Shown here piece by piece: positions 3,130-62,261 of a stretch of DNA of 64,000 bases. Position 1 is the stretch's first letter. The number at the start of each line of letters is the position of its first letter. Made by a program: the position numbers and the translations under genes. This DNA comes from Alphaproteobacteria bacterium (GTDB lineage: Bacteria > Pseudomonadota > Alphaproteobacteria > SP197): positions 160,001 through 224,000 of the forward strand of contig OZ245842.1 of assembly GCA_965228895.1 (NCBI GenBank), written 5' to 3'. The notes under the pieces are model-generated. The model was not told where the DNA came from. It searched no databases and saw only the letters and a program-made list of their open reading frames with translations.

Positions 3130-4395
3130 TTACCCCGAAAGCACCTTCCGCGCGGCCAACTCCCCGCTGCGCGCGGCCCCGTCCATGTTCGACGTCAGTA
3201 CGTAGTCGCCGCAAAAATGCAGCCCGCCGACAGACGCTTCCAGTGCCGCCTGATGTCGCATGCGACCGGGGCTATAGTGTGGCAGGGCATGGCGCCAACG
3301 TCTGTAGCCGACGCGTGCGATGCGGTCGGATAGCTGGGGAAAACGTTCGACGAGCGCGCGAACGGCGCCGGATTGGACGGTGGCCGGCGGATCGTCCCAT
3401 AGCGGCCGGGCGAAGACGTCGTGGACGTAGGAATGGAAACAGCCGCCTTCGGTATCCATGTCGCCCGGCGTGCGCAGCACGAAACCGTTTGAATTGTAGG
3501 TCTGGTCGGGGCGCGAGGGCACCAGCGGGTAGGGCGGGACAGTCTGCCCGGCGGCCGCAATCGAGATCGGTGTCGCAATGATGCGGCCATAGCGAATGGC
3601 ACTCAGCGCCTCGCGCTTCGTTTCCGGCAGGTTAGCGATCACGTTCAAGGCGACCGCCGCTGGCAAGGCGCAGACGACGTGGCGCGCCGTCGTTTCATAG
3701 ACACCGTCTCTCCTGATACCGGCGATGTGGTAGCCGCCCTGGATGGCGCTCACCGCCAGCACCTCGGTATCGGCGGTGAGCTTTGCGCCGCTGGCTTCAG
3801 CGAGTGCTTGGGTAAAGCGGTTCGTGCCGCCTTTGAAAACGGTGTCGCCGCGGTTGGAGCGTGCGACCGGTTGATCGGTGAAGGCGCTGGTTCGGTTGTC
3901 GCCCCAGATCAACATCAAACCATAGAGCGAGATTTCAATGGTCGAGCCGAAGATCAGCGAACCGCACCAGGTCTCGAAGAAGCTCTTCACGGCCTGCGGC
4001 GCGTCTTCCAGCCATTGGGCGACCGAGACCTGATCGAGTTCGGCGCTGTTGGGCGGCCGCCGACGTTCCTGTTCGTCCTCCAACCGGCCAATCCAGGTCT
4101 CGACGGCCGCCGGGTCATCGCTGGACGACGGATCGAAGGCGCGCAGATCGTTGCTGTGAAAGCCGCTGGGGATGAGCTCCAGACCCAGTTCGTCGGCCAG
4201 TTCGATGATCTTGATCTTGTCGTCACTGACATACTGGGCGGCGTAGTTGGCCCAGGTGCCGTCGTCGAAGGTCTCCGACAGGGTGCGCCCTCCGATATGG
4301 CTATCGGCCTCGATCACCTCGATGTCGAGATCACGCAGGTGATAGGCGGCGGTCAGGCCCGCGAGGCCCGATCCCAGCACAACGACATCACGCAT
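3130..4395 (-). CDS. FAD-dependent oxidoreductase, flavin amine oxidase / protoporphyrinogen oxidase family
   Basis: VVVLGSGLAGLTAA dinucleotide motif, EADSHIGGRT, C-terminal FCGDY...MDGAARSGELAA. Start moved to the ATG at 4395, which has a GGAGGGG RBS. Confidence 0.85.
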   Translation of the reverse strand: MRDVVVLGSGLAGLTAAYHLRDLDIEVIEADSHIGGRTLSETFDDGTWANYAAQYVSDDKIKIIELADELGLELIPSGFHSNDLRAFDPSSSDDPAAVETWIGRLEDEQERRRPPNSAELDQVSVAQWLEDAPQAVKSFFETWCGSLIFGSTIEISLYGLMLIWGDNRTSAFTDQPVARSNRGDTVFKGGTNRFTQALAEASGAKLTADTEVLAVSAIQGGYHIAGIRRDGVYETTARHVVCALPAAVALNVIANLPETKREALSAIRYGRIIATPISIAAAGQTVPPYPLVPSRPDQTYNSNGFVLRTPGDMDTEGGCFHSYVHDVFARPLWDDPPATVQSGAVRALVERFPQLSDRIARVGYRRWRHALPHYSPGRMRHQAALEASVGGLHFCGDYVLTSNMDGAARSGELAARKVLSG

Positions 4396-4493
4396 ACGTT
4401 CCCCTCCCTCGATCGACATATTCCATTCTAGCGATTGGGCCACCCGTGCCGATGGTGCATGTTTGTCGAGGTGAGCGATAGGAGGTCTCAACG

Positions 4494-5480: not shown

Positions 5481-6206
5481 ATGATAGACCTTAAGGATGA
5501 CCTGATCGGCGACGCCGAGGATCTGGGCGAGGCCGACGAGATGGACGTTATCGACCGGCTGGCGCCGGTATCAGGCCTCACCGTCATCGATGTTGGTTGC
5601 GGAGGCGGACGCATCACGCGCCAACTGGCCGAACGCGGCGCCAACGCCGTGGGCGTCGAGCCCGACCCGATCCAGGCGGAGAAAAACCGGGCGGCCGAAG
5701 CGGTGCCCGGCCTGTCCTTTGTTGAGGCGCCGGGTCAGGCCTTGCCCATCGACGACAATTCCGTCGACGGCGTCTTCTTCAGTTACTCCCTGCACCATGT
5801 GCCCCGCGAACACATGGACGCGGCACTTGCCGAAGCCGCGCGGGTGCTCAAACCCCAGACCGGCTTTCTCTATGCCATGGAGCCCATGTTGGCGGGCGAT
5901 ATGGAGGCGGTTTATCGGTCGTTTCACGACGAATCCAACGCGCGCGCGCTGGCCTATGAGGCGCTGAAGCGAACGGCGGCGCCGCGCTTCGCCGAGGCGC
6001 AAGAATATCGCTACAGCGAGCCCGTCCCCTACGACAGTTTCGCGACCTTCGTCGACGGCGTGGCCGGCACCACCTACGAAGACTTTCCGCGCGAGCGTGT
6101 CGATACGCCCGAGGTTAGGGCGGCGTTCGAGGTCGGGCGGACCGACGACGGCTATGTCTTCACCCAGCACATCCGGATCAATCTCTACCGCGGCCCGCTC
6201 GCCTAG
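5481..6206 (+). CDS. Class I SAM-dependent methyltransferase
   Basis: VIDVGCGGG motif I, LPIDDNSVDGV, SLHHV, AARVLKP. Its TAG stop lies in the CTAG that begins the IS5 relic. Confidence 0.88.
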   Translation: MIDLKDDLIGDAEDLGEADEMDVIDRLAPVSGLTVIDVGCGGGRITRQLAERGANAVGVEPDPIQAEKNRAAEAVPGLSFVEAPGQALPIDDNSVDGVFFSYSLHHVPREHMDAALAEAARVLKPQTGFLYAMEPMLAGDMEAVYRSFHDESNARALAYEALKRTAAPRFAEAQEYRYSEPVPYDSFATFVDGVAGTTYEDFPRERVDTPEVRAAFEVGRTDDGYVFTQHIRINLYRGPLA

Positions 6207-6249
6207 GGTGCGAACTTATGAATTGCGGTTGGCGTCCGATGCGCTGTGA
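6203..6249 (+). mobile_element. Left end of an IS5-family (IS427-like) relic
   Basis: CTAGGGTGCGAACTTATGAA (6203-6222) is an imperfect inverted repeat (15/20) of TTAATGAGCCCGCGCCCTAG (9081-9100); both ends carry CTAG. Confidence 0.65.
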
Positions 6250-6322
6250 CTTCCGCTTCTGGGGAATCTCCAGACATCTTGATTGCGGCTCCGCATGTCT
6301 CAGGTTAGTCAAAAGCGAACAT
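6249..6322. repeat. Pair of degenerate 28-29 bp palindromic units 17 bp apart (left cassette boundary)
   Basis: ACTTCCGCTTCT-GGGGAA-TCTCCAGACAT (6249-6277), 17-nt spacer, ATGTCTCAGGT-TAGTCA-AAAGCGAACAT (6295-6322). Confidence 0.55.
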
Positions 6323-6371
6323 CTACAGCCAAATGACGACATCTGAGCTGTTAGAACTACGGCGTGCTTCG

Positions 6372-7229
6372 CTAACCGGCAAAGGTTCTCGGTTCCGGCC
6401 CAGAAAACGTCGTCCGATACATCTCCCTCCGAAATCCGCGATAGTCGTTGACGGCAAAATGTTGAGTGAACAAGTTGTCCCAAATTACCACCGCGCCGGC
6501 GCTCCAATCGAACCGGCACGAGAATTCCGGACGGGTCGAGTGGTGCTGGATTTGATCAAGCAGAGGTCGGCTTTCCGTTTCGCTCATTCCGTCCAGCCGC
6601 ACCACATAGAGCGGATTGAGAAACAGGGCCTTCCGGCCGGTTATCGGGTTGCGAATAACTGCCGGGTGCTTGCGTTCCTCATCCGCTTGCGGGTCGCCTC
6701 GACGCATTGAGATGGAGGTGCTATTGCGTTCCTCTATCGGTGGCGCCCATCTTACCCCATAGGGCTTGCCGACATGAATTGCATCGCGTCCGCGCAGCAA
6801 GGCCCTTAGCGGCACCGGCAGTGTCTCCCAAGCCATTGTCTGACTGGCCCAAAGGGTGTCTCCGCCGTAGGGCGGCACGTCGACCGCTGACAGAACGGAA
6901 CCGGCGGGCGGGCATTCAAGAAAGGAGAAATCCTGATGCCAGTCGCCGCCGAAAACACCGCCGCCTTCACTGGCTTCCTTCTGTACACGGATCACCTCGG
7001 GCTCATCCTTTACCGGTGAGACATACGGAAGCCGCAGCAAGGGCCCAAAGAGCCTTGTGAGGCGTTTCTGCTCCTCGATCGACAAGAACTGATCTCTGAA
7101 GAACAGCACGTGATATCGCGCCAGGACATTGCGCAATTCCGCGCCGAATTCGCGAGACAAGGTTCCTTTTAGATCGACTCCGGAGACTTCTGCACCAATT
7201 GCGGGCGTGAGTGGGAAACAGTCCAACAT
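6372..7229 (-). CDS. TauD/TfdA family Fe(II)/2-oxoglutarate dioxygenase
   Basis: PLTPAIGAEVSGVDL, VLFFRDQ, DWHQD (HxD), GGDTLWAS, HPAV, WDNLFTQH, R..YRTT. Confidence 0.93.
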   Translation of the reverse strand: MLDCFPLTPAIGAEVSGVDLKGTLSREFGAELRNVLARYHVLFFRDQFLSIEEQKRLTRLFGPLLRLPYVSPVKDEPEVIRVQKEASEGGGVFGGDWHQDFSFLECPPAGSVLSAVDVPPYGGDTLWASQTMAWETLPVPLRALLRGRDAIHVGKPYGVRWAPPIEERNSTSISMRRGDPQADEERKHPAVIRNPITGRKALFLNPLYVVRLDGMSETESRPLLDQIQHHSTRPEFSCRFDWSAGAVVIWDNLFTQHFAVNDYRGFRREMYRTTFSGPEPRTFAG

Positions 7230-7336
7230 TTTCTGTACTCGGCTTAGGGTGCCAATTGGTGACGGTCGGCAGAATCTGAGCAGAAGTTCAATGCTTCAGA
7301 GACTGCCGAACCAAGTCATGTGAGAGCACGTTGGCT

Positions 7337-7786
7337 TCAGTCAGCTTTGGCCGGTTCCTCGGACAATATGAAGTCCCTGGGACCGTGTTGATGGATGAGG
7401 ATCAGACAGTCCTGCGGCCCCTCGCAGCGATCGTCATGGTTCTCGCCACCGGACTGGAACGCATAACCTCCAGGTCCGAGTGGTCTATCGTCGTCCGCAC
7501 CATAGGTATGAACCCAGTTACCTTGTATCGTAACGCCGTGATAGTCGGCAGTATGGCTGTGTCTGGGAGCCGCGTGTCCGGCCTCGATCCTGACGATCAT
7601 CCCGTAATCGCCTTTCGTCCAGTCACCCCACAACAAAGCGAAGTGCAGTCCGGGACCGCCCTGCTGCCAGGCTAAATCTTCAAAAGCGCGGCTCGACCGC
7701 TGTTCGGCGAAAGCGGCGCTTGCCAGCATCACGCCGATGACGCTGGTAACTGCCGCAATGCGATAGACCTTGGAAATCAAGTTCAT
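7337..7786 (-). CDS. Exported cupin protein, DUF4437-like
   Basis: Signal peptide (...LASAAFA-EQ), LLWGD, cupin motifs PRHSHTADYHGVTIQG and LGPGGYAFQSGGENHDDRC. Confidence 0.75.
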   Translation of the reverse strand: MNLISKVYRIAAVTSVIGVMLASAAFAEQRSSRAFEDLAWQQGGPGLHFALLWGDWTKGDYGMIVRIEAGHAAPRHSHTADYHGVTIQGNWVHTYGADDDRPLGPGGYAFQSGGENHDDRCEGPQDCLILIHQHGPRDFILSEEPAKAD

Positions 7787-7912
7787 AGTCTTCTCCTCGA
7801 TGGTTGAGCGGCTGAGACATCAACCGTTCACTCTTGCGAGAAGCGATATGATCTGTTTCTGTGTTATGAAAAACATGTCGTAAAGCACAAGATTTGTGCG
7901 GATTATTCATAG

Positions 7913-8806
7913 ATGAGCGAGCTATCGAACCTGCAGCTTTTCGCTCGGGTGGTGGAGGAGGGAAGCTTCTCGGCAGCCGCCCGCTATCTCGGGGTAACAC
8001 CGTCCTCGGTCTCTCGCCAGATTTCGCAATTGGAGGGCGAACTGGGCGCGCGCCTGTTTCACCGCACGACGCGCAAACAGAGTCTGACCGAGGCGGGCGA
8101 GATCTATTATCGACACGCGCGCGGCATCGTCGCAGACCTCGAAGAGGCCCGACTGGCTGTCAGCCGGCTGTCAGACGTGCCTTCAGGCAATTTGCATCTG
8201 ACCGCGGAGGCAGACTTTGCAGTGGCAGTTCTCGGACCTCTGCTTCCGGAGTTCCTGGAGCGATACCCGGGGGTCCAGCTTCGATTGTCGTTGAGCTCCG
8301 GCATCGTTGATCTTGTCGACAGCGGGATCGATCTCGCCATACGGATCGGTCATCTCGACGATTCCACCCTTATAGCGCGGAAAATAGCCGAGAGCCGTTC
8401 CGTGATCTGCGCGAGCCCAGCGTATCTGGCAGTACGCGGCACGCCCGACCATCCCAGCAAACTGGTAAAGCACAGTTGTCTTTCATTCCGCTCCAGTTCT
8501 GCGAAAAACGTATGGAAGTTCGAGTTGTCCGAGGGTTCGCTGGAAGTTCCAATATCAGGCAGCCTCAGAGCAAACAGTCTGGTCCTGCTGCGAGATAGCG
8601 CCATGGCCGGGCTGGGCATTATCCTCATTCCATCCTGGGTGGTACGCGGTGAACTAAGGGACGGACGTCTGGTGCCCCTGCTTTCAGACTTTCCCCGAGC
8701 GTCAGCGAGCGCTCCCATCAACGCCGTCTATGCGCACAGGCGGCACTTGCCGCCAAAAGTCCGTGCCTTTGTTGACTTCCTCGCTGAGCGCATTGAACCG
8801 CTTTGA
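7913..8806 (+). CDS. LysR-family transcriptional regulator (CrgA/DmlR-like)
   Basis: HTH FARVVEEGSFSAAARYLGVTPSSVSRQISQLEGELGARLFHRTTR; DLAIRIG, CASPAYL, PKVRAFVDFL; divergent from the cupin and TauD genes. Confidence 0.96.
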   Translation: MSELSNLQLFARVVEEGSFSAAARYLGVTPSSVSRQISQLEGELGARLFHRTTRKQSLTEAGEIYYRHARGIVADLEEARLAVSRLSDVPSGNLHLTAEADFAVAVLGPLLPEFLERYPGVQLRLSLSSGIVDLVDSGIDLAIRIGHLDDSTLIARKIAESRSVICASPAYLAVRGTPDHPSKLVKHSCLSFRSSSAKNVWKFELSEGSLEVPISGSLRANSLVLLRDSAMAGLGIILIPSWVVRGELRDGRLVPLLSDFPRASASAPINAVYAHRRHLPPKVRAFVDFLAERIEPL

Positions 8807-8829
8807 AGCCCGCGAGCAGTTGTTGCTCG

Positions 8830-8937
8830 AAGTCGCTTCCGGGTCAAACTGCGACATTGTGCCAACACTCGCCAACGCCTGCTTTAGGGGGGACCTTCCG
8901 ACATAGAATGTCCGGTACTTAGTTGTAAGGCGGTCCT
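8830..8937. repeat. Three degenerate 28-30 bp palindromic units (right cassette boundary)
   Basis: AAGTCGCTTCC-GGGTCA-AACTGCGACAT (8830-8857), 17-nt spacer, ACGCCTGCTTT-AGGGGGG-ACCTTCCGACAT (8875-8904), then ATGTCCGGTAC-TTAGTTG-TAAGGCGGTCCT (8908-8937). Confidence 0.55.
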
Positions 8938-9100
8938 GTGATTCAAGCTCCGAAAGGAGCTGTGACAATGCGATTTCATCCGCATCAAACAGTGTAGTCG
9001 GATCGCCACACGGTACGACAAGCTGGCGGCGAACTTCCCGGCATTCATCAGGCTAGCCGCAATGAGGCTCTGGCTAGCCATTAATGAGCCCGCGCCCTAG
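8936..9100 (+). pseudogene. Internally deleted IS5-family transposase remnant plus right end
   Basis: Frame 8966-9100 reads QCDFIRIKQCSRIATRYDKLAANFPAFIRLAAMRLWLAINEPAP*, the characteristic IS5/IS427-type C-terminus (ATRYDK..N...F..LA....WL). The stop lies in the terminal repeat. An RBS (AAGGAG) and ATG (8968) sit just upstream, out of frame. Confidence 0.85.
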
Positions 9101-9115
9101 ATAGAAGGCGCACCT

Positions 9116-10195
9116 CTAAAGCAACGCCAACTGGTCGCTGTCGGCGATAGGACGGATGAACTGGCGAGTGTCGAGTACCCAGTTGCGGCGGTTCAGGCCC
9201 AGGCGGCGCGCGGCGATGCCAAAGCGCCGTGAGATCATGTCGGCGAACGGGCCGGTGCCGACCTGACGCTGACGCCATTTGGGATCGTAGTCGCGCCCGT
9301 TGCGGCAGTCCTGGATCAGGCTGATCACGCGCTTGGCGCGGTCGGGCTCATGGGTCTCCAGCCATTCGCGGAACAGGTCCTTGATCTCCAGCGGCAGGCG
9401 CAGCAGCACATAGCTCGCGCTGGTGGCGCCGGCATCGCGGGCGGCTTCCAGCACCGCCTCCATCTCCGCATCGTTCAGGCCGGGAATGATCGGCGCGAAC
9501 AGGACGCCCGTGTCGACGCCGGCCTCGGTCAGCCGCTTAACGGCGTCGAGCCGACGTTGCGGTGTCGAGGCGCGCGGCTCCATACGACGGGCGAGGTCGC
9601 GGTCAAGCGTGGTGATCGAAAGATAGGCGCGCGCCAGCTTGTCCTGGCCCATCGGCCCCAGAATGTCGGCGTCCCTCGCGATCAGCGCTGACTTGGTGAC
9701 GATGCCGACCGGATGGCGGCACTCCGACAAGACCTCCAGCACCGATCGCGTGATACGGTGCTGGCGCTCGATCGGCTGGTAGGGGTCGGTGTTGGTGCCC
9801 ATGGCGATGACCCGGGGCCTGTAGCCCGGCCGCGCCAGTTCGCTCCTCAAGAGCCGCGCGGCGTCCGGCTTGATAAGCAGCTTCGATTCGAAGTCCTGGC
9901 CTGGCGACAGGCCCAAAAAGGCATGGGTTGGGCGTGCGAAACAATAGACGCAACCGTGCTCGCAGCCCCGATAGGGGTTGATCGAGCGGTCGAATGGCAC
10001 GTCCGGTGACTGGTTGCGGGCGATGATTGTCTTGGTCGTGTCGACGGTGATCTCCGTCTTCAAGGGCGGCAGGTCCTCGTCCAGGCTGCCCCAGCCGTCG
10101 TCAAACGCCTCATAGGCGTGCCGTTCGAAGCGGCCGGCTTCGTTGCTGACCGTGCCCCGCCCCTTGCGCTGAAGGCGATAGTTTATCTGGGTCAT
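9116..10195 (-). CDS. PA0069-family radical SAM protein (spore photoproduct lyase-like)
   Basis: SINPYRGCEHGCVYCFARP (CxxxCxxC), GTNTDPYQPIE, IVTKS, MEPRAS, LLRLPLE. Start at the ATG at 10195 after a GGAGG RBS. Confidence 0.93.
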   Translation of the reverse strand: MTQINYRLQRKGRGTVSNEAGRFERHAYEAFDDGWGSLDEDLPPLKTEITVDTTKTIIARNQSPDVPFDRSINPYRGCEHGCVYCFARPTHAFLGLSPGQDFESKLLIKPDAARLLRSELARPGYRPRVIAMGTNTDPYQPIERQHRITRSVLEVLSECRHPVGIVTKSALIARDADILGPMGQDKLARAYLSITTLDRDLARRMEPRASTPQRRLDAVKRLTEAGVDTGVLFAPIIPGLNDAEMEAVLEAARDAGATSASYVLLRLPLEIKDLFREWLETHEPDRAKRVISLIQDCRNGRDYDPKWRQRQVGTGPFADMISRRFGIAARRLGLNRRNWVLDTRQFIRPIADSDQLALL

Positions 10196-10212
10196 GGCGT
10201 TCCTCCGGAGGA

Positions 10213-10227
10213 GAACATTATAGGAAC
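10213..10227 (-). promoter_or_regulatory. Alphaproteobacterial LexA (SOS) box GTTC-N7-GTTC
   Basis: + strand GAAC-ATTATAG-GAAC, an exact consensus match, about 18 nt upstream of the radical SAM start. Confidence 0.8.
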
Positions 10228-10273
10228 ATTCGATGGTTCGGCAAGGAAACATGACGGCGCGCCCGGAAGCCTT

Positions 10274-10966
10274 ATGATCCCGCCCATGCTCCGGCTCGCC
10301 GTCGTCATCCCCACGCTTAACGCCGCCGCCACGCTGCCCTCGGTGTTGGCGGCGCTGGTCTCAGGCGACGCCATCGAACGCGAGATGGTGGTGGTCGACG
10401 GCGGCTCTGACGACGGTACGCCGGCGCTGGCCGAGTCGTTGGGCGCGCGCGTTGTCACCGCGTCAAAAGGACGCGGCAGTCAACTCGCGGCCGGCGCAGC
10501 GGCGACATCGGCGCCGTGGCTGCTCTTTCTGCACGCCGACACACGGCTGCAGGCAGGTTGGTCTCGTGATGTCCTGGCATTTGCCAACGAGGCTGCCAAC
10601 CGGGGCAAGGCCGCGGTCTTCCGCTTCGCACTCGACGATCAAGCCCGTGGCGCTCGCCGCCTGGAGCGCCTGGTGGCCTGGCGCACGCGTGTCCTGGGCC
10701 TGCCTTACGGCGACCAGGGGTTTTTGATCTCGCGCGAGCTCTACAACGACATCGGTGGCTTCCGCGCCCTGCCGCTGATGGAAGACGTCGATATCGTCCG
10801 TCGTCTGGGGCGTGCCCGTCTCGTCAGCCTGCCGTCCGCAGCGATTACCAGCGCCAGACGTTACCAGGGCGGCGGTTATTTTCTGCGCAGTGCGCGCAAC
10901 GTGACCTGCCTCTGTCTCTACTTTCTCGGTGTGCCGCCGCGCTGGCTGGTCAGGTTCTACGGATGA
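10274..10966 (+). CDS. GT2 glycosyltransferase, TIGR04283-type
   Basis: VVIPTLNAA, VVDGGSDDGT, GRGSQLAAGA, LLFLHADT, LPYGDQG, PLMEDV, TSARRY. Confidence 0.9.
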   Translation: MIPPMLRLAVVIPTLNAAATLPSVLAALVSGDAIEREMVVVDGGSDDGTPALAESLGARVVTASKGRGSQLAAGAAATSAPWLLFLHADTRLQAGWSRDVLAFANEAANRGKAAVFRFALDDQARGARRLERLVAWRTRVLGLPYGDQGFLISRELYNDIGGFRALPLMEDVDIVRRLGRARLVSLPSAAITSARRYQGGGYFLRSARNVTCLCLYFLGVPPRWLVRFYG

Positions 10967-11568
10967 TCCCGCGCCATGTCGTCGTGTTTGCCCGCCAGCC
11001 GCGTTTCGGAACGGTCAAGACGCGGCTCGCCGCCGATATCGGGCCTGGCGCGGCGCTGGCCTTCTATCGCCGCACGCTCGCGCAGATGCTCAAGGGCCTG
11101 GGTCAGGACGGCCGCTGGACCACCTGGCTTGCTGTCACGCCGGCGACGGCGGCCAGACGACGCCGACCATGGCAGGCCGGTTTGCCTCTCATGGCCCAGG
11201 CTGAAGGCAATCTGGGGGACCGCATGGCGACGGTCTTCCGCGAGTTGCCGCCGGGACCGGCCATCATCGTCGGCAGTGACATTCCGGATCTGCGTCCGGC
11301 CCATGTCGCCGCCGCGTTCCGCCTGCTTGACGACAACGACGTCGTCTTCGGGCCGACGCCGGACGGCGGTTACTACCTGATCGGCCTGCGCCCGGAGCGG
11401 CGCGACGGACCGCTGTTCGAACGGGTCAGGTGGTCGACGCGCCATGCACTCGCCGACACACGCAAAAGCCTGCCGCGCGGCTGCCGCATCGCCCAGTTGT
11501 CGGAGCTGATGGATATCGACACCGGCGACGACTTCGCACGGTGGCGCCGTCGGTCGATCGGCGGTTAG
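10963..11568 (+). CDS. TIGR04282 / DUF2064 transferase
   Basis: FARQPRFGTVKTRLA, QAEGNLGDRM, IVGSDIP, VFGPTPDGGYYLIG, VRWST, DIDTGDD; ATGA coupling to the upstream gene. Confidence 0.9.
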   Translation: MIPRHVVVFARQPRFGTVKTRLAADIGPGAALAFYRRTLAQMLKGLGQDGRWTTWLAVTPATAARRRRPWQAGLPLMAQAEGNLGDRMATVFRELPPGPAIIVGSDIPDLRPAHVAAAFRLLDDNDVVFGPTPDGGYYLIGLRPERRDGPLFERVRWSTRHALADTRKSLPRGCRIAQLSELMDIDTGDDFARWRRRSIGG

Positions 11569-22895: not shown

Positions 22896-23811
22896 CGGCG
22901 AACGATCTCCGATTGCGATCACCGCCCCGGCCAAGGTTAACCTCTACCTCCACGTTACGGACCGTCGCGCCGACGGCTTGCACGAGCTCGACAGTCTGTT
23001 CGTGCGTGTCGACGCCTGCGACCAGATCACGGGCGAGGCGGCCGAAACGCTGACGCTCGAAGTTCGCGGGCCGTTTGCCGAGGCCCTGACGGCCCAAAAT
23101 GCTGACGACAATCTGGTCCTGAAGGCCGCGCGCCTGCTGGCCCAAGAGGCCGACGTCACCGCCGGCGCCGCGCTGGTTCTGGAAAAGCATCTCCCCGTCG
23201 CGGCCGGAATCGGCGGCGGTTCGGCCGACGCCGCTGCGACGCTGCGCCTCCTCGTTGACTTATGGTCGCTTGATTTTGGGCCGGCCCGTTTGGCGGCGAT
23301 CGCCGCGCGCCTGGGTGCGGATGTGCCGCCATGCCTGCACCACGTGCCGCTGGCGGTTTCCGGCACCGGCGATATCGTTGAACCTTCGCCGCGCCTGCCC
23401 GCCGCCTGGTTGGTGCTGGTCAATCCGGGCGTTGACGTGCTGACGGCGCGCGTCTTTGCTGCGCGATCCGGCGGTTTCAGCGGCGCCCAACCGTTGACGC
23501 GAGAGCCACGCAATGTCGCGGACCTCGCCCATGAACTCGGCCTTCGGCGCAACGACCTGGAAACCCCAGCGATCGCATTGGCGCCGGTGATTGCCGACGT
23601 GTTGGGCGAACTGCGCCAACTCGCCGGCATCCTGCTGGCCCGGATGTCCGGCAGCGGCGCGACCTGTTTCGGCCTCGCGGCCTCTGCTGCCGACGCTGAG
23701 AGGAGCGCGGCCGCCCTGGCCAAGGCGCATCCGGACTGGTGGGTTTGCGCCGCCGCCGTGTTGCAAGACGGTGATGCTAATCCGCTTCCCATCAGGCGCG
23801 GGAATCGTTAG
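22882..23811 (+). CDS. ispE: 4-diphosphocytidyl-2-C-methyl-D-erythritol kinase
   Basis: APAKVNLYLHV, KHLPVAAGIGGGSADAAA, LGADVP, NDLE, RMSGSGATCF. Confidence 0.97.
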   Translation: MPEADGERSPIAITAPAKVNLYLHVTDRRADGLHELDSLFVRVDACDQITGEAAETLTLEVRGPFAEALTAQNADDNLVLKAARLLAQEADVTAGAALVLEKHLPVAAGIGGGSADAAATLRLLVDLWSLDFGPARLAAIAARLGADVPPCLHHVPLAVSGTGDIVEPSPRLPAAWLVLVNPGVDVLTARVFAARSGGFSGAQPLTREPRNVADLAHELGLRRNDLETPAIALAPVIADVLGELRQLAGILLARMSGSGATCFGLAASAADAERSAAALAKAHPDWWVCAAAVLQDGDANPLPIRRGNR

Positions 23812-23819
23812 GTAGCGCC

Positions 23820-25163
23820 ATGTCTAAAGAGTTTGATGTCGCGGCCTGGCAGGACCGCCTGGCGCGTCGCGAGGCGAGGATTGGCGTTATCGGCCTGGGC
23901 TATGTCGGGCTGCCGCTCGTTCTGGCCTTCCACGACGCCGGTTTCCCGGTTCTCGGCTTCGATACCGATGAGGCGAAGGTCCGCCAGCTCGACGAGGGCC
24001 AGAGCTACATTCGCCATATCGCCGGTGACGCTATCGCCGGATTGGCGGGTTCGGACCGTTTTCACGGCACCACCGACGTCGCAGAGCTTGCCGATACCGA
24101 CGCGATCCTGATCTGTGTCCCCACGCCGCTGACCCGCTACCGCGACCCCGACCTCTCCTATGTCGAGGGCACGGCGCGCGCCATCGCGCCGCATGTGCGC
24201 GCCGGCCAGATCGTCATCTTGGAGTCGACGACCTATCCGGGCACGACCGACGAGGTCCTGAAGCCGATCCTGGAAGCTGGCGGCCTGACCGCCGGGCGCG
24301 ATTTCCTGATCGCTTATTCGCCGGAGCGCGAAGATCCCGGCAACCCGACCTATGGCACGACCGAGATCCCGAAGGTTGTCGGCGGCGACGATGCGGCGGC
24401 GACAGCGATTGCCTGCAGTCTCTACGACACCATCACCAGCGGTGGCACGGTGGCGGTGGGTTCGGCGGCGACGGCGGAGGCGGTCAAGCTCACCGAAAAC
24501 ATCTTTCGCGCGGTCAATATCGCGCTCGTGAACGAGTTGAAGGTCGTTTACGACAAGATGGGCATCGACATCTGGGAAGTCATCGACGCCGCCAAGACCA
24601 AACCCTTCGGCTTCATGCCGTTCTATCCGGGTCCGGGCCTGGGCGGTCACTGCATCCCGATCGATCCCTTCTACCTGACCTGGAAGGCCAGGGAGTTCGA
24701 GACACCGACCCGCTTTGTCGAGCTGGCGGGCGAGATCAACAGCGCCATGCCGGCCCACGTGGTCTCCCGCCTGGCCGAAGCGCTGAACGACCGCTTCGGC
24801 AAGGGGCTCAACGGTAGCCGCGTCCTGATGATGGGCATGGCGTACAAGAAAGACGTCGACGACATCCGCGAAAGCCCGTCGCTCAAGCTGATGGCGCTGC
24901 TGGAAGAGCGTGGCGCGGATGTGAGCTTCTACGATCCCTTCATCCCGGTTATCTCGACGGGACGCGAGCACGCCGCGTTGTCCGGCCGCAAGAGCGTCAC
25001 CTGGCAGGATGTCCTGGCCGGCGGCCACGATGCCGCGTTCATCGTGACCGACCACAGCGACGTCGATTATCAGGCGCTCGTCTCCGCGAGCCCCCTGGTC
25101 GTCGACACGCGCAACGCGACGCGCGAGGTCGCGGAACACCGCGATCGCATCGTGCGCGCCTGA
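23820..25163 (+). CDS. Nucleotide-sugar dehydrogenase (UDP-GlcNAc/UDP-ManNAc type)
   Basis: GLGYVGLP, ICVPTP, LESTTYPGTT, SPEREDPGN, KLTENIFRAVN, GPGLGGHCIPIDP, YKKDVDDIRESP. Confidence 0.95.
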   Translation: MSKEFDVAAWQDRLARREARIGVIGLGYVGLPLVLAFHDAGFPVLGFDTDEAKVRQLDEGQSYIRHIAGDAIAGLAGSDRFHGTTDVAELADTDAILICVPTPLTRYRDPDLSYVEGTARAIAPHVRAGQIVILESTTYPGTTDEVLKPILEAGGLTAGRDFLIAYSPEREDPGNPTYGTTEIPKVVGGDDAAATAIACSLYDTITSGGTVAVGSAATAEAVKLTENIFRAVNIALVNELKVVYDKMGIDIWEVIDAAKTKPFGFMPFYPGPGLGGHCIPIDPFYLTWKAREFETPTRFVELAGEINSAMPAHVVSRLAEALNDRFGKGLNGSRVLMMGMAYKKDVDDIRESPSLKLMALLEERGADVSFYDPFIPVISTGREHAALSGRKSVTWQDVLAGGHDAAFIVTDHSDVDYQALVSASPLVVDTRNATREVAEHRDRIVRA

Positions 25164-25250: not shown

Positions 25251-25324
25251 TGGGGCGTAGCCAAGCGGTAAGGCAACGGGTTTTGATCCCGTGATCCCTG
25301 GTTCGAATCCAGGCGCCCCAGCCA
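25251..25324 (+). tRNA. tRNA-Gln (anticodon TTG)
   Basis: Acceptor stem TGGGGCG/CGCCCCA, anticodon arm ACGGG-TTTTGAT-CCCGT, T arm CCTGG-TTCGAAT-CCAGG, encoded CCA. Confidence 0.97.
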
Positions 25325-28202: not shown

Positions 28203-28982
28203 TCATCTCTTCAGCGTGTCATCGTAGCCAAAGAGCGTAAAGTCTTTCTGATAGAGGCTGCGGACGATGTCCTCACACTCGTTGTTATAGTAATTCAGTA
28301 AATAATTTTGTGCATTTGATTTATGTTGTCGAACCTCTTGTTGAAATTCATATCTCTGTCCGGGAAACACCGCAGCCGATACCTGGGCCAAATCGTTCTC
28401 TAAGGTTTCCGTCTTTCCAACAAAGTCCAGGTTATTGAAACCAATCAGACGCGCGTATCTCTCCTGGGGGATCCAGTGGGGATCATCATGTAGTCCACCA
28501 TTCTTCAGGTATCGACAGAATGTATCGAAGCTTATCTCGGCTCCGTCACGCAAGCCGAGACACTCCCGGACAAGGTTCTTGAACTCTGGAGGTCGAGGTT
28601 TGCCGTCGAATACGATCTTGTCCAAGTATGCCGATAGAACCCGGCCGAACGGCTCACGTACGACGATGAACTTGAAGTAGTCGGCCTTGGCCCTTCTCGC
28701 CTCCTTGAATGTCAGCTCGCGAGGGTCATGAAAACTCTGCTTGGCGTGACCACCGCTATCAGGCAGGCGTCCGTGAATCATCCAATAGAGCGTGTAGGCG
28801 ACCGTTGTGTTCGCAGCCTTCGGGATGCGGACATAGATGAATTGGTGCTCGTGATTGATCGCGACTCTGGAATCAATATGTCGAAGATGAAAACTCCAAC
28901 TCTCTGGCGCGGAGATGTAAAATGGCCGCAGGCACCACATGGCCGAACGCACTGAGGATTTTGCCCGTCGCCACGCCCTCAT
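28203..28982 (-). CDS. Sulfotransferase family 2 (HNK-1 / chondroitin sulfotransferase type)
   Basis: 5'-PSB motif YVRIPKAANT, 3'-PB motif VVREPFGRVLSAY, HWIPQ, DFVGKTE, LYQKDFTLFGY; visibly AT-richer than the flanks; ATG at 28982 with a GGAG RBS. Confidence 0.88.
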   Translation of the reverse strand: MRAWRRAKSSVRSAMWCLRPFYISAPESWSFHLRHIDSRVAINHEHQFIYVRIPKAANTTVAYTLYWMIHGRLPDSGGHAKQSFHDPRELTFKEARRAKADYFKFIVVREPFGRVLSAYLDKIVFDGKPRPPEFKNLVRECLGLRDGAEISFDTFCRYLKNGGLHDDPHWIPQERYARLIGFNNLDFVGKTETLENDLAQVSAAVFPGQRYEFQQEVRQHKSNAQNYLLNYYNNECEDIVRSLYQKDFTLFGYDDTLKR

Positions 28983-29470
28983 ACAGTTATCTCCGTTGCT
29001 TGATTGTGTTGCTGTTGTCGATGGCGGGTGACGTCCCAAATGGAATAGTCTCGATCGTAAACCAGGACAACTTGAACCCACAAACAGCAACACAGAACTT
29101 TGCGTGATCAAGAGCAAGTCAGGCCAGTAGAAGAATCCGTCATTTTTTATTGCTTTGGCCGATTGGAATGGTGGATTGCGGTGGGTGCGCGGTTCATCGA
29201 GACGGCGCTCTCGGGCGTTCACGGACGATATTCAAGCGCTGCGTGAGACCGGTTCGATACAATCGATGATGGTGCCGACTGCGTTAATCCGGGAGTGCGC
29301 GGTCACGGTGATGAACGCCTTGCGGTATTTTTGGATGCAAACCGTCGCTTCCTGACCCGTGGCCTTGTCCTATCACAGTCTCTAGTGTTGAGGTGTCACG
29401 AGATAGACGGACGTCACCCGGACAGGTTAGGAATCCCCGGATAAAGGCTCGCGTCGAAGGAGACAGCTTG

Positions 29471-43402: not shown

Positions 43403-43831
43403 CTAACCGTCGCCGAACTCGATAATCTTCGGCAACGTGTCATTGGGTTCATACCAGCCGTTACGCGACTCCCAGAAGATGTGCCGGAAGTTGGCGCTTT
43501 CGGCCCCTGGATCGGCGCCGTCATCCAGGCTGCCCGCCGCATACCAGATGTCGTCGGACTGTTCGGCGTTGTCCTCGTAAACCCGACTGCCGCATGTCGC
43601 GCAGAAGAAACGATGAATGCGCTCTGAGCTGTCATAACGTGTCACGTTGTCGGCGCCTTGGGTGACGACGAACGCATCGCGTGGCACGACCACATAGGTC
43701 GGCATCAAGGCGCCCTGCAGCTTGCGGCAAATCGAGCAGTGACAGTGATAGACGTCGTCGGCCGGGGCGTTCACCTGGAAGCGCACGGCGCCGCACAGAC
43801 AGCCGCCGGTCAGTGGCTTGAAGTCCGCCAT
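43403..43831 (-). CDS. GFA / CENP-V family Zn protein
   Basis: GGCLCGAVRF, CHCSICRK, FCATCG, HIFWESR. Confidence 0.92.
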   Translation of the reverse strand: MADFKPLTGGCLCGAVRFQVNAPADDVYHCHCSICRKLQGALMPTYVVVPRDAFVVTQGADNVTRYDSSERIHRFFCATCGSRVYEDNAEQSDDIWYAAGSLDDGADPGAESANFRHIFWESRNGWYEPNDTLPKIIEFGDG

Positions 43832-43834
43832 GAC

Positions 43835-44281
43835 TTAACCCTCACCGTAGCCGGTGTGCTTGGGCAGGTCGTCGCCCGGGTCATACCAGCTTACGCGTGA
43901 TTCCCAGAAGATATGCCGCTCCTTGTCGGCAGCGTGGCCGGGCGACTGGCCGGCATCAAGCGAGCCGAGGTTGATGAAGAACTCGTTGGGCCAGTCGTCG
44001 ACCAAGGTGAAGAGCTGACCGCCACATACACGGCAGAACTGCCGGTGCGTGCCCGGCGTGCTCTCAAAGTCGACCAGGTCGGCCTTGCCGCTGACCAGGG
44101 TGAAGGCGTCCACCGGTACAATGCCCGCACTGGCAAAGAGTGAACCGTGGGTCTTGCGACACAATGAGCAATTGCAGTGCATGACCTGCTCCATCGCTTG
44201 GCTCACCTCATAGCGCACGCCACCGCATTGGCAGCCGCCGGTTCGCAGTTGGGTTGTCACAATCGGGTGCTCCTCATTCAC
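43835..44281 (-). CDS. GFA / CENP-V family Zn protein
   Basis: GGCQCGGVRY, CNCSLCRK, FCRVCG, HIFWESR. Confidence 0.92.
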   Translation of the reverse strand: MNEEHPIVTTQLRTGGCQCGGVRYEVSQAMEQVMHCNCSLCRKTHGSLFASAGIVPVDAFTLVSGKADLVDFESTPGTHRQFCRVCGGQLFTLVDDWPNEFFINLGSLDAGQSPGHAADKERHIFWESRVSWYDPGDDLPKHTGYGEG

Positions 44282-47887: not shown

Positions 47888-49381
47888 CTAAACCTCGATC
47901 GCGTCGAAGGGATAGAGCGGGCGGCGGATGTTCTTGAACGTCAGCCGGCTCGAATCGGGCGAGGCCAACGCGCCGGAATCGCAGACAATGACCTTGTCGG
48001 CGATCGGTTCGTAGGCGGCGCGGAAATGCTGCATCGACTTCAGCGCCACCGTACGCTTCTCGCGTGGGTCGATCCCATTCGTCAGGAACTGCTGCATATC
48101 GGTGATTTGGATGAGATTGGTGACGACCAGAACATCGATGCCGCCGACCCGCAACACAGCGCTGGGACCGAAGTGCTTGGTCATGCCCGCCCACATCGGT
48201 CCGTCGCAAATGTATGTGCCGTCGCCGGTGTGCACGACGCTGCCTGTAAGTTCCAAGGGCGGACCACCAAAACGGGGGTCGACCTTGCCGCCGACGTCCA
48301 ACGTCACCGTGGCGCCAGGGCCAGCCTGAACCAGGGCGGCGGCCGCCTCGCCGTCACGCACGGCGCCGAAGCAGGCATCCTGTAATCGGGCATCCAGCAT
48401 CGCCTTGAGCAAATTCGTCGCATCGCCATAGGCGCCGGCGCCGGGATTGTCGGCGTAATCAGCGATGACCAGCGGCTTGCCGTTGTAGTTGTGCTGGCGC
48501 GCGATGTCGGCGGCTTGGCCAGACGTCAGATAGGTGTTGGTGACCTCGTCGCGACGTTGCCAGATGTCGTCCATCAACGCTTCGGCCATCGCCTGATAGC
48601 GCGGATCGTCGCCGTCGCCGGTCACCAAGACCGTGGGGCCGACGTCGAAAATGTCGGAGTGATGGAAGCCCGCGTTGATCGATGTGTTGAGCACGCCCGC
48701 CTCCGCCTCGAAGCCGCGCGCCTTGGCTTGCAGGTCGATCATCGGTCCGGCATCGGTGCGCCCGCCGTCGGCGCCTTCGAACAACGGGCGGCGCGCCAGG
48801 AACGTCCTGGGCCGGATCTCGCCGGCCATGGCGCGTTGCAGCAGGTCACCCGCCTGGCGACCACGTTCGGCCATGTCGATATGCGGATAGGTCTTATAGC
48901 TGCACACGATGTTGGCGAGGTCGGCCACATCCGGCCCGACATTGGCATGCAGGTCGAAGGTGACGGCGACCGGGATGTCGTTGCCGATGATGGCGCGCAC
49001 GCGTTTCAGGAGTTCGGTTTCCGCGTCCTCGTAGCTCTCGGTCACCATGGCGCCATGCAGGGCGAGCAGCACGCCGTCGACATCGCGATTGGCCTCAAGC
49101 CTATCGAGGATCAAACCGCCAAGTTCTTCGAAAGCGTCGTCCGTCACCTTGCCGCACGGGTTGGCGAAGGCGGCGACGGTATGGATGAGCTCCCAGTCAT
49201 GGGCCTCGGCCGCGGCTATGAAACCGGCAGTCTCGCTGTTGGTGCCGGTCATCTCCCGAACGATTTCCTCGGCGCCGCGAAAGCAGAACATCTTTTCGAA
49301 GGCCGGAATGTCGGCGGGTTGGACCGAAAAGGTGTTGGTCTCGTGCATGAGCTGGCCGGCCAGCACGCGAAACTTCATCAA
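47888..49381 (-). CDS. M81 (MlrC-like) metallopeptidase
   Basis: HETNTFS, LALHGAM, DLHAN, YKTYPHID, DNPGAG, LKSMQHFRA, RRPLYPFD. Confidence 0.92.
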   Translation of the reverse strand: MMKFRVLAGQLMHETNTFSVQPADIPAFEKMFCFRGAEEIVREMTGTNSETAGFIAAAEAHDWELIHTVAAFANPCGKVTDDAFEELGGLILDRLEANRDVDGVLLALHGAMVTESYEDAETELLKRVRAIIGNDIPVAVTFDLHANVGPDVADLANIVCSYKTYPHIDMAERGRQAGDLLQRAMAGEIRPRTFLARRPLFEGADGGRTDAGPMIDLQAKARGFEAEAGVLNTSINAGFHHSDIFDVGPTVLVTGDGDDPRYQAMAEALMDDIWQRRDEVTNTYLTSGQAADIARQHNYNGKPLVIADYADNPGAGAYGDATNLLKAMLDARLQDACFGAVRDGEAAAALVQAGPGATVTLDVGGKVDPRFGGPPLELTGSVVHTGDGTYICDGPMWAGMTKHFGPSAVLRVGGIDVLVVTNLIQITDMQQFLTNGIDPREKRTVALKSMQHFRAAYEPIADKVIVCDSGALASPDSSRLTFKNIRRPLYPFDAIEV

Positions 49382-61277: not shown

Positions 61278-62261
61278 ATGGCCAACGATCGAGATCACGA
61301 TGTTCGCGAAGAGTTGATGCCGTCAGGCGAGATCTATCGCCCGCGCTATTCCGGTGTCGCGACCTTCATGCGCCGCCCCCTGCGTGACGACGGCAACTGG
61401 GACGGCATCGACATCGGGTTGATCGGCGTGCCGTTCGACGGCGGCGTCACCAACCGACCGGGCGCGCGCCATGGGCCGCGCGGCTTGCGCGAGCAATCGA
61501 CCCTGATGGGCCATACCAACCATCAGACGGGCATTCAGCCCTATCACATCGCGGAATCGGCGGATCTGGGCGACGTTTTGATCGAGGGCGTCTATAACCT
61601 TGAGCGCGCGATGGACGACATCGAAGCGTTTTACAAGAAGGTGCACGAAGCGGGCATCCTGCCGCTGACCGCCGGCGGCGATCATTCGATCACGCTGCCG
61701 ATCATGAAGGCGATTGCCGCCGACCGTCCGGTCGGCCTGATCCATTTCGACGCTCATTGCGATACCGGGCCTGAGTTGTTCGGCCACAAGCACCATCACG
61801 GCGGCCCGTTCCGTGTCGCGGTCGATGACGGCGTGCTGGATCCCAAACGCACGATCCAGATCGGCATTCGCGGTCCGGCCGAGCCTTTGTGGGCCTTCAG
61901 CTACGAATCCGGCATGACCGTCATCCACATCGAGGACCTCTATGCCATGGGGATCGACGCGGTCATCGCTCGGGCGCGTGAGGTCGTCGGCGACGGCCCG
62001 ACCTATATCAGCTTCGATGTCGACGGGCTGGATCCGGTCTATGCCCCAGGCACAGGCACGCCGGAAGTCGGCGGGTTCACGACATTCGAGGCGCAGCAGA
62101 TGCTGCGTGGCCTGCGTGGTCTCGACATCATCGGCGGCGATGTGGTCGAAGTCTCGCCGCCGTTTGATCCGTCCGGCCAGACCGCGCTGACCGGTGCCCA
62201 GATGATGTGGGAAATTCTGTGCCTGATGGGCGAGAACGTCGCGGCGAAGAAGGGCGGCTAA
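61278..62261 (+). CDS. speB: Agmatinase / guanidino-acid ureohydrolase
   Basis: GVPFDGG..NRPGARHGP, GGDHSIT, HFDAHCD, HHGGPF, SFDVDGLDP..APGTGTPE, DVVEVSP; exact substrate uncertain. Confidence 0.85.
   Translation: MANDRDHDVREELMPSGEIYRPRYSGVATFMRRPLRDDGNWDGIDIGLIGVPFDGGVTNRPGARHGPRGLREQSTLMGHTNHQTGIQPYHIAESADLGDVLIEGVYNLERAMDDIEAFYKKVHEAGILPLTAGGDHSITLPIMKAIAADRPVGLIHFDAHCDTGPELFGHKHHHGGPFRVAVDDGVLDPKRTIQIGIRGPAEPLWAFSYESGMTVIHIEDLYAMGIDAVIARAREVVGDGPTYISFDVDGLDPVYAPGTGTPEVGGFTTFEAQQMLRGLRGLDIIGGDVVEVSPPFDPSGQTALTGAQMMWEILCLMGENVAAKKGG

Follow-up and report, generated by a model that had tools for sequence, protein, structure and literature searches.

A candidate mobile-insertion-cassette-like unit: TauD, cupin and LysR genes inside an internally deleted IS427-group relic

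IS200/IS605-type non-autonomous elements are associated with palindromes, have no terminal inverted repeats and carry no enzyme. Integrase-less islands, or cis-mobilisable elements, have short direct repeats at their junctions, lack an integrase and are foreign in base composition. Mobile insertion cassettes (MICs), along with IS copies that hold passenger genes, are described in a passage of PMC3129680 as recognised IS derivatives that can be activated by a cognate transposase. According to an excerpt of PMC6449649, dif and pdif sites span 28 bp, and the inner parts of their arms form a highly conserved palindrome. Here, we analyse a block of three genes that lies within the remains of an insertion sequence in the window, by which we mean the whole 64-kb stretch of DNA that was studied (Table 1). 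Our main reading, to which we assign a probability of about 0.5, is that a foreign TauD-cupin-LysR segment is embedded in an IS427-group (IS5-family) element that is internally deleted and devoid of a transposase, and that the whole was moved as an MIC-like unit.

Table 1. Coordinates of the features at the locus, in window positions.
Feature	Coordinates	Strand	Content or basis
IS relic, left part	6203-6249	+	CTAG, left inverted repeat, 5' leader to CTGTGA
Direct repeat CTGTGA, left copy	6244-6249	.	Sequence reading
Inserted block	6250-8935		2.69 kb; TauD, cupin and LysR genes
Left end of the block (3' flank of TauD)	6250-6371	.	Proposed units 6249-6277 and 6295-6322
TauD/TfdA-family alpha-ketoglutarate dioxygenase gene	6372-7229	-	Pfam PF02668, E 1.5e-58; GC3 0.64
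Cupin gene (ChrR-like Cupin_7 / DUF4437)	7337-7786	-	Pfam PF12973, E 1.4e-12
LysR-type regulator gene	7913-8806	+	Pfam PF00126 and PF03466
Right end of the block (3' flank of LysR)	8807-8935	.	Proposed units 8830-8857, 8875-8904 and 8908-8937
Direct repeat CTGTGA, right copy	8936-8941	.	Sequence reading
IS relic, right part	8942-9100	+	Rest of 5' leader, start codon, 43 codons, inverted repeat, CTAG

The relic is located between convergent methyltransferase and radical-SAM genes and retains both terminal inverted repeats (6203-6228 on the left, 9075-9100 on the right). The tetranucleotide CTAG is present at 6203-6206, where it overlaps the methyltransferase stop codon, and at 9097-9100. The left end and the reverse-complemented right end agree at 18/26 positions, as do the two ends of an intact 829-bp IS from Blastomonas (18/26), and the inverted repeat formed with 9077-9100 is 24 nt long and 75% complementary. 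CTAG was found on both sides of all three elements for which both ends were located (those in the window, Blastomonas and M. loti), and the left ends of the IS copies in Ensifer and Agrobacterium were looked for and not found. As CTAG is itself the palindromic target, finding it on either side argues less strongly for a fresh duplication than finding an arbitrary repeat would. The transposase gene is for the most part deleted; its last 43 codons remain, with an open frame at 8969-9097 that ends in a stop codon at 9098-9100. In a BLAST search against plasmids, an IS5-family transposase gene from an Ensifer plasmid matched 8984-9100 at 72.7%, and a relative is annotated as an IS427-family transposase. 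The relic measures about 206 bp without the block, and the whole unit, 6203-9100, measures 2,898 bp.

We compared the flanks of the block to intact elements of the same group by pairwise alignment. The segment 6201-6249 can be aligned to the left terminus of the Blastomonas IS, with the alignment ending exactly at a TTCTGA of that IS, and the sequence from 8936 aligns from the same TTCTGA onward into TTCAGG; both copies of CTGTGA thereby align to the single TTCTGA of the intact element. The IS from Ensifer is continuous across the site of the block in the same manner, and the 3' 125 nt of the relic align with all four of the intact ISs. In these four IS427-group (IS5-family) elements, the flanks of the block correspond to one contiguous IS with a single copy of the repeat site, and the pattern around the inner block, with CTGTGA at both junctions and one homologous site in the intact ISs, is that of a target-site duplication. 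The initial annotation had reported CTGTGA as a direct repeat at both ends of the block and had suggested that removal of the block rejoins the halves of an IS5 relic, and both statements were borne out, the latter by the continuity of the Blastomonas and Ensifer ISs. The alignments support the view that the block is a discrete insertion into the IS relic, with a 6-bp direct repeat on either side. In an unscored inspection by eye of the four half-sites that surround CTGTGA, agreement of at least three of them was seen in 4/11 columns as compared to about 2 expected, and a convincing common recombinase arm motif could not be discerned.

All three genes that had been claimed as cargo were identified with Pfam, with the LysR gene oriented divergently from the cupin-TauD pair. 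The cupin, which had been described as exported, has a hydrophobic, signal-like N-terminus as judged by eye from the translation. The lower GC content noted earlier was confirmed in 400-nt windows, with values of 0.535-0.608 across 6201-9200 as compared to 0.64-0.72 on either side, and the recommended analysis of codon usage yielded GC3 values of 0.64-0.66 in the block versus 0.80 and 0.84 in the adjoining genes. Because of this dip in GC content and the lower GC3 than in the neighbours, the TauD-cupin-LysR segment is a candidate for horizontally acquired DNA, which forms part of the joint explanation given above and shares its probability. The left end of the block contains a small hairpin (6258-6274) and three copies of ACATCT, and the right end contains a small hairpin at 8898-8915. 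As previously stated, no transposase or recombinase domain was detected in the block with Pfam, nor was one identified among all 57 ORFs scanned in the window, including the other 54. Since the block carries no enzyme, any mobility would need an enzyme acting in trans.

Searches of the 64-kb window with four pieces revealed no second copy of the end and flank sequences, the relic, the block or the 2.9-kb unit. The whole region matched 11 plasmid records in BLAST, consisting of one IS match and ten short fragments of LysR genes. The left end of the block gave no match in the plasmid collection, and the 10 records obtained with the right end all had E values of at least 1, so that none was significant. 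No related block was found on plasmids with tblastn, where the best identities were 44.4% for TauD and 32.4% for the cupin. Among the matches listed, the closest other TauD proteins are 79% and 73% identical, the former on a metagenome contig of 2,702 nt, and the closest cupin relatives are 83% identical and, on a metagenome contig of 18,770 nt, 87% identical. One TauD match and one cupin match (P0062 and P0254) are both located on contigs of 4378 nt, which is perhaps the same contig, length being a crude proxy for identity. A second coincidence in size, at 1105 nt, was discarded, as such a contig is too short for both the TauD and the cupin gene.

A profile search of genome contigs with TauD, in which the alignment was built from 29 of the 120 listed hits, yielded 79 loci with 39-74% identity, and neighbours were counted at E <= 1e-8 and more than 80 aligned residues. 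The cupin gene adjoins the TauD gene in a single locus (L029, 26% identity), and LysR is present in three loci (L056, L068 and L069; 29-40% identity) and adjacent in none; the TauD-cupin-LysR arrangement was not found in any of the 79 loci. Six-frame peptides from the block ends produced only noise (E >= 0.08) against 80 loci, namely these 79 and the Ensifer locus L001, and some of these hits derived from TauD codons included in the query. A look-up of protein clusters showed that identical versions of all three block proteins are present on 2 contigs. As identical copies on 2 contigs were likewise seen for two housekeeping proteins of no relation to the block, the clusters provide no presence/absence evidence for it. 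In a relative of about 99%, represented by a contig of 2.75 Mb, the flank proteins are 95.6-100% identical.

Since the relic keeps both inverted repeats and CTAG and has lost its transposase, the 2.9-kb unit is built like an MIC. Judged from its sequence, 6203-9100 has the anatomy of this class of elements, with the ends of a known IS family surrounding unrelated passenger genes and no transposase. An MIC is a more likely vehicle than the palindromic units of the initial annotation, and it is the IS427-type inverted repeats, located outside the coordinates originally assigned to the element, that would plausibly serve an enzyme acting in trans. The three genes entered the IS in a single event between CTGTGA and TTCAAG, probably the earlier step, which left 6 bp repeated on both sides and may have taken place elsewhere or in a resident relic at the present site. 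The composite 2.9-kb unit most likely would have reached the CTAG between the methyltransferase and radical-SAM genes whole, moved by a related IS427-group transposase supplied in trans. Arrival as a whole unit would explain the presence of foreign genes inside a 206-bp IS remnant without an appeal to chance. As for the inner step, we weakly favour a one-off crossover of circular DNA at the 6-bp identity, which might have been illegitimate or mediated by an unlinked recombinase, because the block ends are without inverted repeats, symmetric arms and significant structure; classical cut-or-copy transposition is ranked lower for this step. Against the MIC-like reading, there is no second 2.9-kb unit in the 64-kb window, no close relative in the plasmid collection and no intact IS427-group transposase in the 64-kb window.

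The order of events may have been different, such that the IS landed at CTAG and decayed and the block then integrated into the resident 206-bp relic, in which case the genes would have moved without any contribution of the IS ends. The anatomy of the element fits that order equally well, as does the finding of no other composite copy in the 64-kb window and the plasmid collection, but a 206-bp target in a 5.5-Mb contig is an unlikely chance landing unless this IS sequence is targeted, of which no sign was seen, and we regard insertion in place as rather unlikely. Alternatively, the block could be an MIC in its own right, as a non-autonomous DDE-type transposon with a 6-bp duplication, a transposase in trans and very degenerate terminal repeats that would carry GACAT-type transposase binding sites. 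Such an element would account for the direct repeat exactly at the junctions and for several features of the block ends, which are not wholly featureless in the placement and local density of GACAT/ATGTC. At either end, GACAT occupies positions 24-28 as counted from the repeat. The anchored match of the ends is 13/28, which is equalled by about 2% (2.2%) of random pairs, and both ends contain three copies of GACAT/ATGTC in 125 nt, as densely as 0.39% of the windows, corresponding to 6 regions of the 64 kb. However, terminal inverted repeats were not found in 6250-8935: the outermost 20 nt match at 6/20 positions, where chance gives 5.4, and when the ends were aligned with gaps in inverted orientation, their similarity was equalled by 171/1000 shuffles. 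Moreover, no further copies were seen in the 64-kb window or the 79 loci, neither end had a significant match in the plasmid collection, and terminal repeats decayed to randomness are not expected in an element in which the genes and the direct repeat are intact. A DDE-type transposon is thus unlikely. We consider it very unlikely that the block is a non-autonomous site-specific element, the circle of which is integrated by an unlinked recombinase through crossover in the 6-bp core CTGTGA, with the conserved, near-palindromic CTGATTCAG of the IS427-group leader as its target. Resident ISs would then serve as landing pads and onward vehicles, and the binding sites would include the GACAT found 24-28 nt away from either junction.

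The initial annotation had instead interpreted five units of dif-like 11-6-11 geometry at the block ends as recognition sites of an enzyme acting in trans, which would be a tyrosine recombinase or HUH nuclease, and hence as an undescribed cassette system. A 6-bp repeat without terminal inverted repeats would fit a crossover in a 6-bp overlap region, and the absence of an enzyme from the block and the local enrichment of GACAT/ATGTC are also in line with this proposal, but the units do not stand out as palindromes. Their arms pair at only 4, 5, 6, 4 and 5 of 11 positions, and the fractions of same-length windows in the 64 kb that pair as well are 0.34, 0.15, 0.05, 0.34 and 0.15, respectively. 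Exact inverted arms at the block ends are only 6-mers, and the best 11-N-11 palindrome at each end (8/11) equals the modal best of 400 random 128-nt stretches. The z-scores for folding (-1.07 and -0.30 for the left end, -0.18 and +0.26 for the right end) are no better than those of shuffles, and the direct similarity of the two ends was equalled by 141/1000 shuffles. The recurring letters of the units are the outer ATGT/ACAT only, unlike the inner conservation of dif sites, and the inner-arm palindrome typical of dif and pdif is lacking (4-6/11, equalled by 5-34% of windows). Nor could the two classes of units in mirrored order be recovered, since the left unit A aligns best with the right unit B, and the exact spacing of 17 nt in both pairs hangs on the right side on a start at 8875, which has no ATGTC. 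The recommended model of the units recovered its own training copies and one hit at E 1.8 in the window and had no hits in 934,661 nt around the 79 TauD relatives; there are thus no copies beyond the five in the window and none in the 79 loci. Likewise, no Rfam covariance model matched 6000-9300 at E <= 1 on either strand. With the three-gene arrangement also missing from all 79 loci, we judge a dif-like cassette system to be highly improbable: the need for an enzyme in trans for any mobility is supported, and the role of the units as its recognition sites is not. The units could also be REP/BIME-type intergenic repeats or transcription terminators of the donor genome that were carried along with the genes. 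Consistent with this, both ends are 3' flanks of genes that read outward, the hairpin at 6258-6274 is terminator-like, and a short hairpin of CGAGCA/TGCTCG closely follows LysR at 8813-8829. However, the former hairpin is on the plus strand, whereas TauD is read on the minus strand, the overall fold energies do not exceed those of shuffles, and the 5 terminator-like structures in 6100-9200 compare to 2.9 +/- 2.0 in shuffles. REP-type repeats are strong palindromes, which the units are not, and the lack of copies in the window beyond the five also speaks against such repeats; this origin is quite unlikely. The proposed palindromic units are ordinary 3'-flank sequence in the joint explanation, at the probability given for that explanation as a whole.

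If the MIC-like reading is true, the island to be annotated is 6203-9100 rather than 6244-8941, and the locus represents one more IS remnant carrying passenger genes, with no new mechanism involved. It would also exemplify the way in which genes of accessory metabolism, here those for an alpha-ketoglutarate dioxygenase and its regulator, are packaged for movement. The inner junction, a clean 6-bp repeat without terminal repeats or an enzyme, stands apart from this and would matter only if further cases show that the same IS motif is struck repeatedly.

Among the described systems, the block resembles the pdif modules of Acinetobacter and other Xer-exploiting elements, in so far as an excerpt on these describes gene modules without a recombinase, bounded by short sites and served by a host enzyme in trans. 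In contrast to dif and pdif sites, the units of this block are no more palindromic than chance would give, and the letters that recur in them are the outer ones only. The strong palindromes in many copies that characterise REP and BIME repeats were not seen in the window. Like IS200/IS605-type elements, the block has no terminal inverted repeats, no enzyme and small hairpins near both ends, but the hairpin at 6258-6274 has no sequence relationship to that at 8898-8915 and the folds are not significant, whereas such elements have a pair of similar subterminal hairpins on one strand. The block shares direct repeats at the junctions, the lack of an integrase and a foreign composition with integrase-less islands; its repeat is, however, merely 6 bp, and its half-sites have no convincing common arm motif by eye. 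The relic alone, with about 206 bp, both ends, a leader, a start codon and 43 codons, is similar to MITE-like internal-deletion derivatives of IS5-family (IS427-group) elements, from which it differs by holding a 2.69-kb insertion and by having no other copies in the window. Passenger genes inside a transposase-less IS are an already known way of gene travel, and with MICs and transporter ISs the unit 6203-9100 has in common the terminal repeats of an IS family, the target of that family on both sides, the passengers and the lack of a transposase. It differs from these in that one copy was seen in the window and none in the plasmid collection, and in that its passengers are bounded by a separate inner 6-bp repeat, which would be the record of a distinct, earlier event.

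The stretch between the two copies of CTGTGA, hereafter referred to as the block (window positions 6250-8935), contains three intact genes, as identified from the sequence and a domain scan. These encode a TauD/TfdA dioxygenase, a cupin with a hydrophobic, signal-peptide-like N-terminus (judged by eye) and a LysR regulator. The GC content in 400-nt windows was 0.535-0.608 over positions 6201-9200, as compared to 0.64-0.72 on both sides, and the GC3 values of the block genes were 0.64-0.66, as compared to 0.80 in the left-hand neighbour (methyltransferase) and 0.84 in the right-hand one (radical-SAM). The block is thus real and represents compositionally foreign DNA, in agreement with the initial annotation, which had also correctly placed the direct repeat. 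No transposase, integrase or recombinase domain was found in the 57 ORFs scanned in the window (5 full-length genes plus 40 and 12 ORFs), confirming that the block carries no such enzyme of its own.

Features of the block, its neighbourhood and other parts of the window
Feature	Position	Strand	Remarks
SAM methyltransferase gene	5481-6206		convergent with radical-SAM gene
Direct repeat CTGTGA	6244-6249 and 8936-8941		read from sequence
TauD/TfdA dioxygenase	6372-7229	minus	PF02668, E 1.5e-58
Cupin, 149 residues	7337-7786	minus	PF12973
LysR regulator	7913-8806	plus	divergent
Radical-SAM gene	9116-10252		convergent with methyltransferase gene
Family-2 glycosyltransferase gene	10118-10966		after radical-SAM gene
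DUF2064 gene	10963-11568		after family-2 glycosyltransferase gene
tRNA-Gln (TTG)	25251-25324	plus	sole tRNA gene of the window
Sulfotransferase-family gene	28203-29222	minus	PF03567

A BLAST search of positions 6100-9200 against a plasmid collection yielded 11 records, of which 10 were short matches to the LysR gene. The remaining record was an IS5-family transposase gene on an Ensifer plasmid, which matched window positions 8984-9100 at 72.7%. With this Ensifer IS as the query, 343 records were recovered, including one from Agrobacterium with an IS427-family annotation. We compared the flanks of the block to four intact IS relatives, and positions 8975-9100 align with the final ~125 nt of all four, through a common ...ATGAG...CCTAG terminus. 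On the left side, positions 6201-6249 align to the Blastomonas IS at its left end, exactly as far as the TTCTGA of that element; the alignment resumes at position 8936, running from this TTCTGA into TTCAGG. The Ensifer leader is likewise continuous (88% over 25 nt, positions 8938-8960). Since the intact ISs are continuous here, the uninterrupted IS held a single copy of the CTGTGA site. With the junction set by homology, six letters would agree by chance in about 1 in 4096 cases, and, judging from these alignments, the block and the 6-bp repeat are inserted within the IS. The suggestion that removal of the block rejoins an IS5 relic is thereby borne out. Of the relic's transposase gene, ~630 bp are missing; its start codon and final 43 codons are still present, as is the leader. 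The entry point adjoins a short, near-palindromic CTGATTCAG-like motif (positions 8936-8950), which is conserved immediately before the transposase start codon in three of the four intact relatives (IS sequences L081, L082 and L083); the fourth relative and the window carry a variant of it.

The ends of the IS, at positions 6203 and 9100, fall outside the coordinates of the initial annotation and are intact. They form a 24-nt inverted repeat (6203-6226 and 9077-9100) with 75% complementarity, and match at 18 of 26 positions when extended to 26 nt, which is the value for the intact 829-bp Blastomonas element. CTAG flanks both sides in all three elements for which both ends were located (window, Blastomonas, M. 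loti); for the Ensifer and Agrobacterium copies, no left end was found. In the window, the left CTAG overlaps the methyltransferase stop codon, and 16 nt separate the right CTAG from the end of the radical-SAM gene.

The island splits this convergent gene pair. The DUF2064 protein shares a protein cluster with one that NCBI names as a TIGR04282 arsenosugar-biosynthesis glycosyltransferase, and the insertion is possibly located within a gene cluster of the arsenosugar type, where it breaks no reading frame. The sulfotransferase gene has the lowest GC3 of the window (0.57 versus about 0.8 in its neighbours) and is possibly another gene of foreign origin. The short border sequences that were read showed neither an IS remnant nor a repeat. 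No island or integrase was identified beside the tRNA-Gln gene among the ORFs scanned. Two adjacent genes for glutathione-dependent formaldehyde-activating (GFA) domain proteins, with an amidase gene alongside, are located at 43403-44281 on the minus strand.

Five degenerate 11-6-11 palindromes (6249-6277, 6295-6322, 8830-8857, 8875-8904 and 8908-8937) had been proposed at the block borders as recognition sites of a new cassette system. Their arms pair at only 4, 5, 6, 4 and 5 of 11 positions, which is equalled by fractions of 0.34, 0.15, 0.05, 0.34 and 0.15 of the same-length windows in the 64 kb. The best palindrome in either block end (6250-6371 and 8807-8935) pairs at 8 of 11 positions, the modal best score in 400 random 128-nt stretches, and exact inverted arms are 6-mers at the longest. 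The ends fold no better than shuffled sequences (z-scores of -1.07, -0.18, -0.30 and +0.26 for the two ends on either strand; 200 shuffles each), and their best local alignment to each other was equalled by 141 (direct) and 171 (inverted) of 1000 shuffles. The direct comparison pairs the left unit A with the right unit B, and the mirrored A-B...B-A order is therefore unstable. The 17-nt spacing of both pairs is arithmetically correct for the boundaries chosen, but the right-hand value holds only if a unit begins at 8875, where there is no ATGTC word. A sequence model built from the five units and run unfiltered across the window recovered its training copies and one extra match (E 1.8), and gave no match at E <= 10 in 934,661 nt from 79 loci around TauD relatives. 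No Rfam family matched. Against the plasmid collection, the left end had no match and the right end only matches at E >= 1. The units are thus not supported as recognition sites by pairing, folding, end similarity or the model scan.

Each block end contains three GACAT or ATGTC words per 125 nt, a density reached by 0.39% of windows, in six regions of the 64 kb. The four regions outside the block are 4291-4446, 23778-23944, 48851-48997 and 62000-62141. Counted from the repeat, GACAT occupies positions 24-28 of each end, which raises the anchored inverted comparison of the ends to 13/28, a score reached by 2.2% of random pairs; the outermost 20 nt match at 6/20. The GACAT signal is suggestive at most, once the freedom to choose word and length is taken into account. 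Three direct copies of ACATCT are present in the 122-nt left end (6274-6279, 6318-6323 and 6339-6344; 44 and 21 nt apart), along with a fourth, inverted GACAT-type word at 6295-6299, while the right end has no ACATCT.

Among the matches listed, the exact TauD protein has no cluster mates, and the nearest other proteins share 79% and 73% identity with it. The nearest representative of the cupin is 83% identical, and two full-length members of its cluster are identical at 123/149 and 129/149 positions. A search with an alignment of 29 of the 120 TauD matches listed identified 79 loci in genome contigs, with 39-74% identity. With tblastn hits retained at E <= 1e-8 and >80 residues, a cupin adjoins TauD in one of the 79 loci (26% identity), a LysR is present in three and adjacent in none, and the TauD-cupin-LysR arrangement was recovered from none. 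The block ends had no match in these loci either, and there is therefore no sign of a circulating cassette within the sequences searched. The longest contig listed is 4,378 nt for each of two metagenome-derived proteins, P0062 (TauD, 67% identical) and P0254 (cupin, 60%); they may share one contig, possibly the sole place that pairs relatives of two block genes. In cluster look-ups, the three exact block proteins occur on two contigs, and a relative with a 2.75-Mb contig has flank proteins that are 95.6-100% identical. Identical copies on two contigs are also seen for two unrelated housekeeping proteins, so this relative probably carries the block too, and the two contigs of the block proteins provide no presence/absence evidence.

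Taken together, a foreign three-gene segment has been inserted precisely, with a 6-bp repeat, in the leader of an IS that has intact ends, no transposase and CTAG on either side. We suggest that relic and block arrived at this chromosomal CTAG as a single unit, moved in trans by an IS427-group transposase, since foreign DNA would otherwise have entered a 206-bp remnant in a 5.5-Mb contig either by chance or through an unknown targeting mechanism. The block ends have no terminal inverted repeats, symmetric arms or structure, which argues against ordinary DDE transposition as the inner event. A candidate for that event is a single crossover with a circular DNA at six identical bases, which may have been illegitimate or driven by an unlinked recombinase. 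This crossover is the weakest part of the account.

Thus, of the original observation, the block with its composition, the repeat and the interrupted IS are confirmed, and the palindromic units and their architecture are not; of the interpretation, a discrete insertion without its own enzyme is supported, and the recognition units and new cassette system are not. In dif and pdif sites, the conserved palindrome is made up of the inner arm portions (PMC6449649), whereas only the outer ATGT/ACAT letters recur in the block units. Mobile insertion cassettes and transporter ISs are recognised IS derivatives that can be activated in trans by a cognate transposase (PMC3129680). The 2,898-bp unit at 6203-9100, with IS ends and passenger genes and no transposase, has the same anatomy, and the element is best filed as an IS427-group derivative with passenger genes, of a kind already known.
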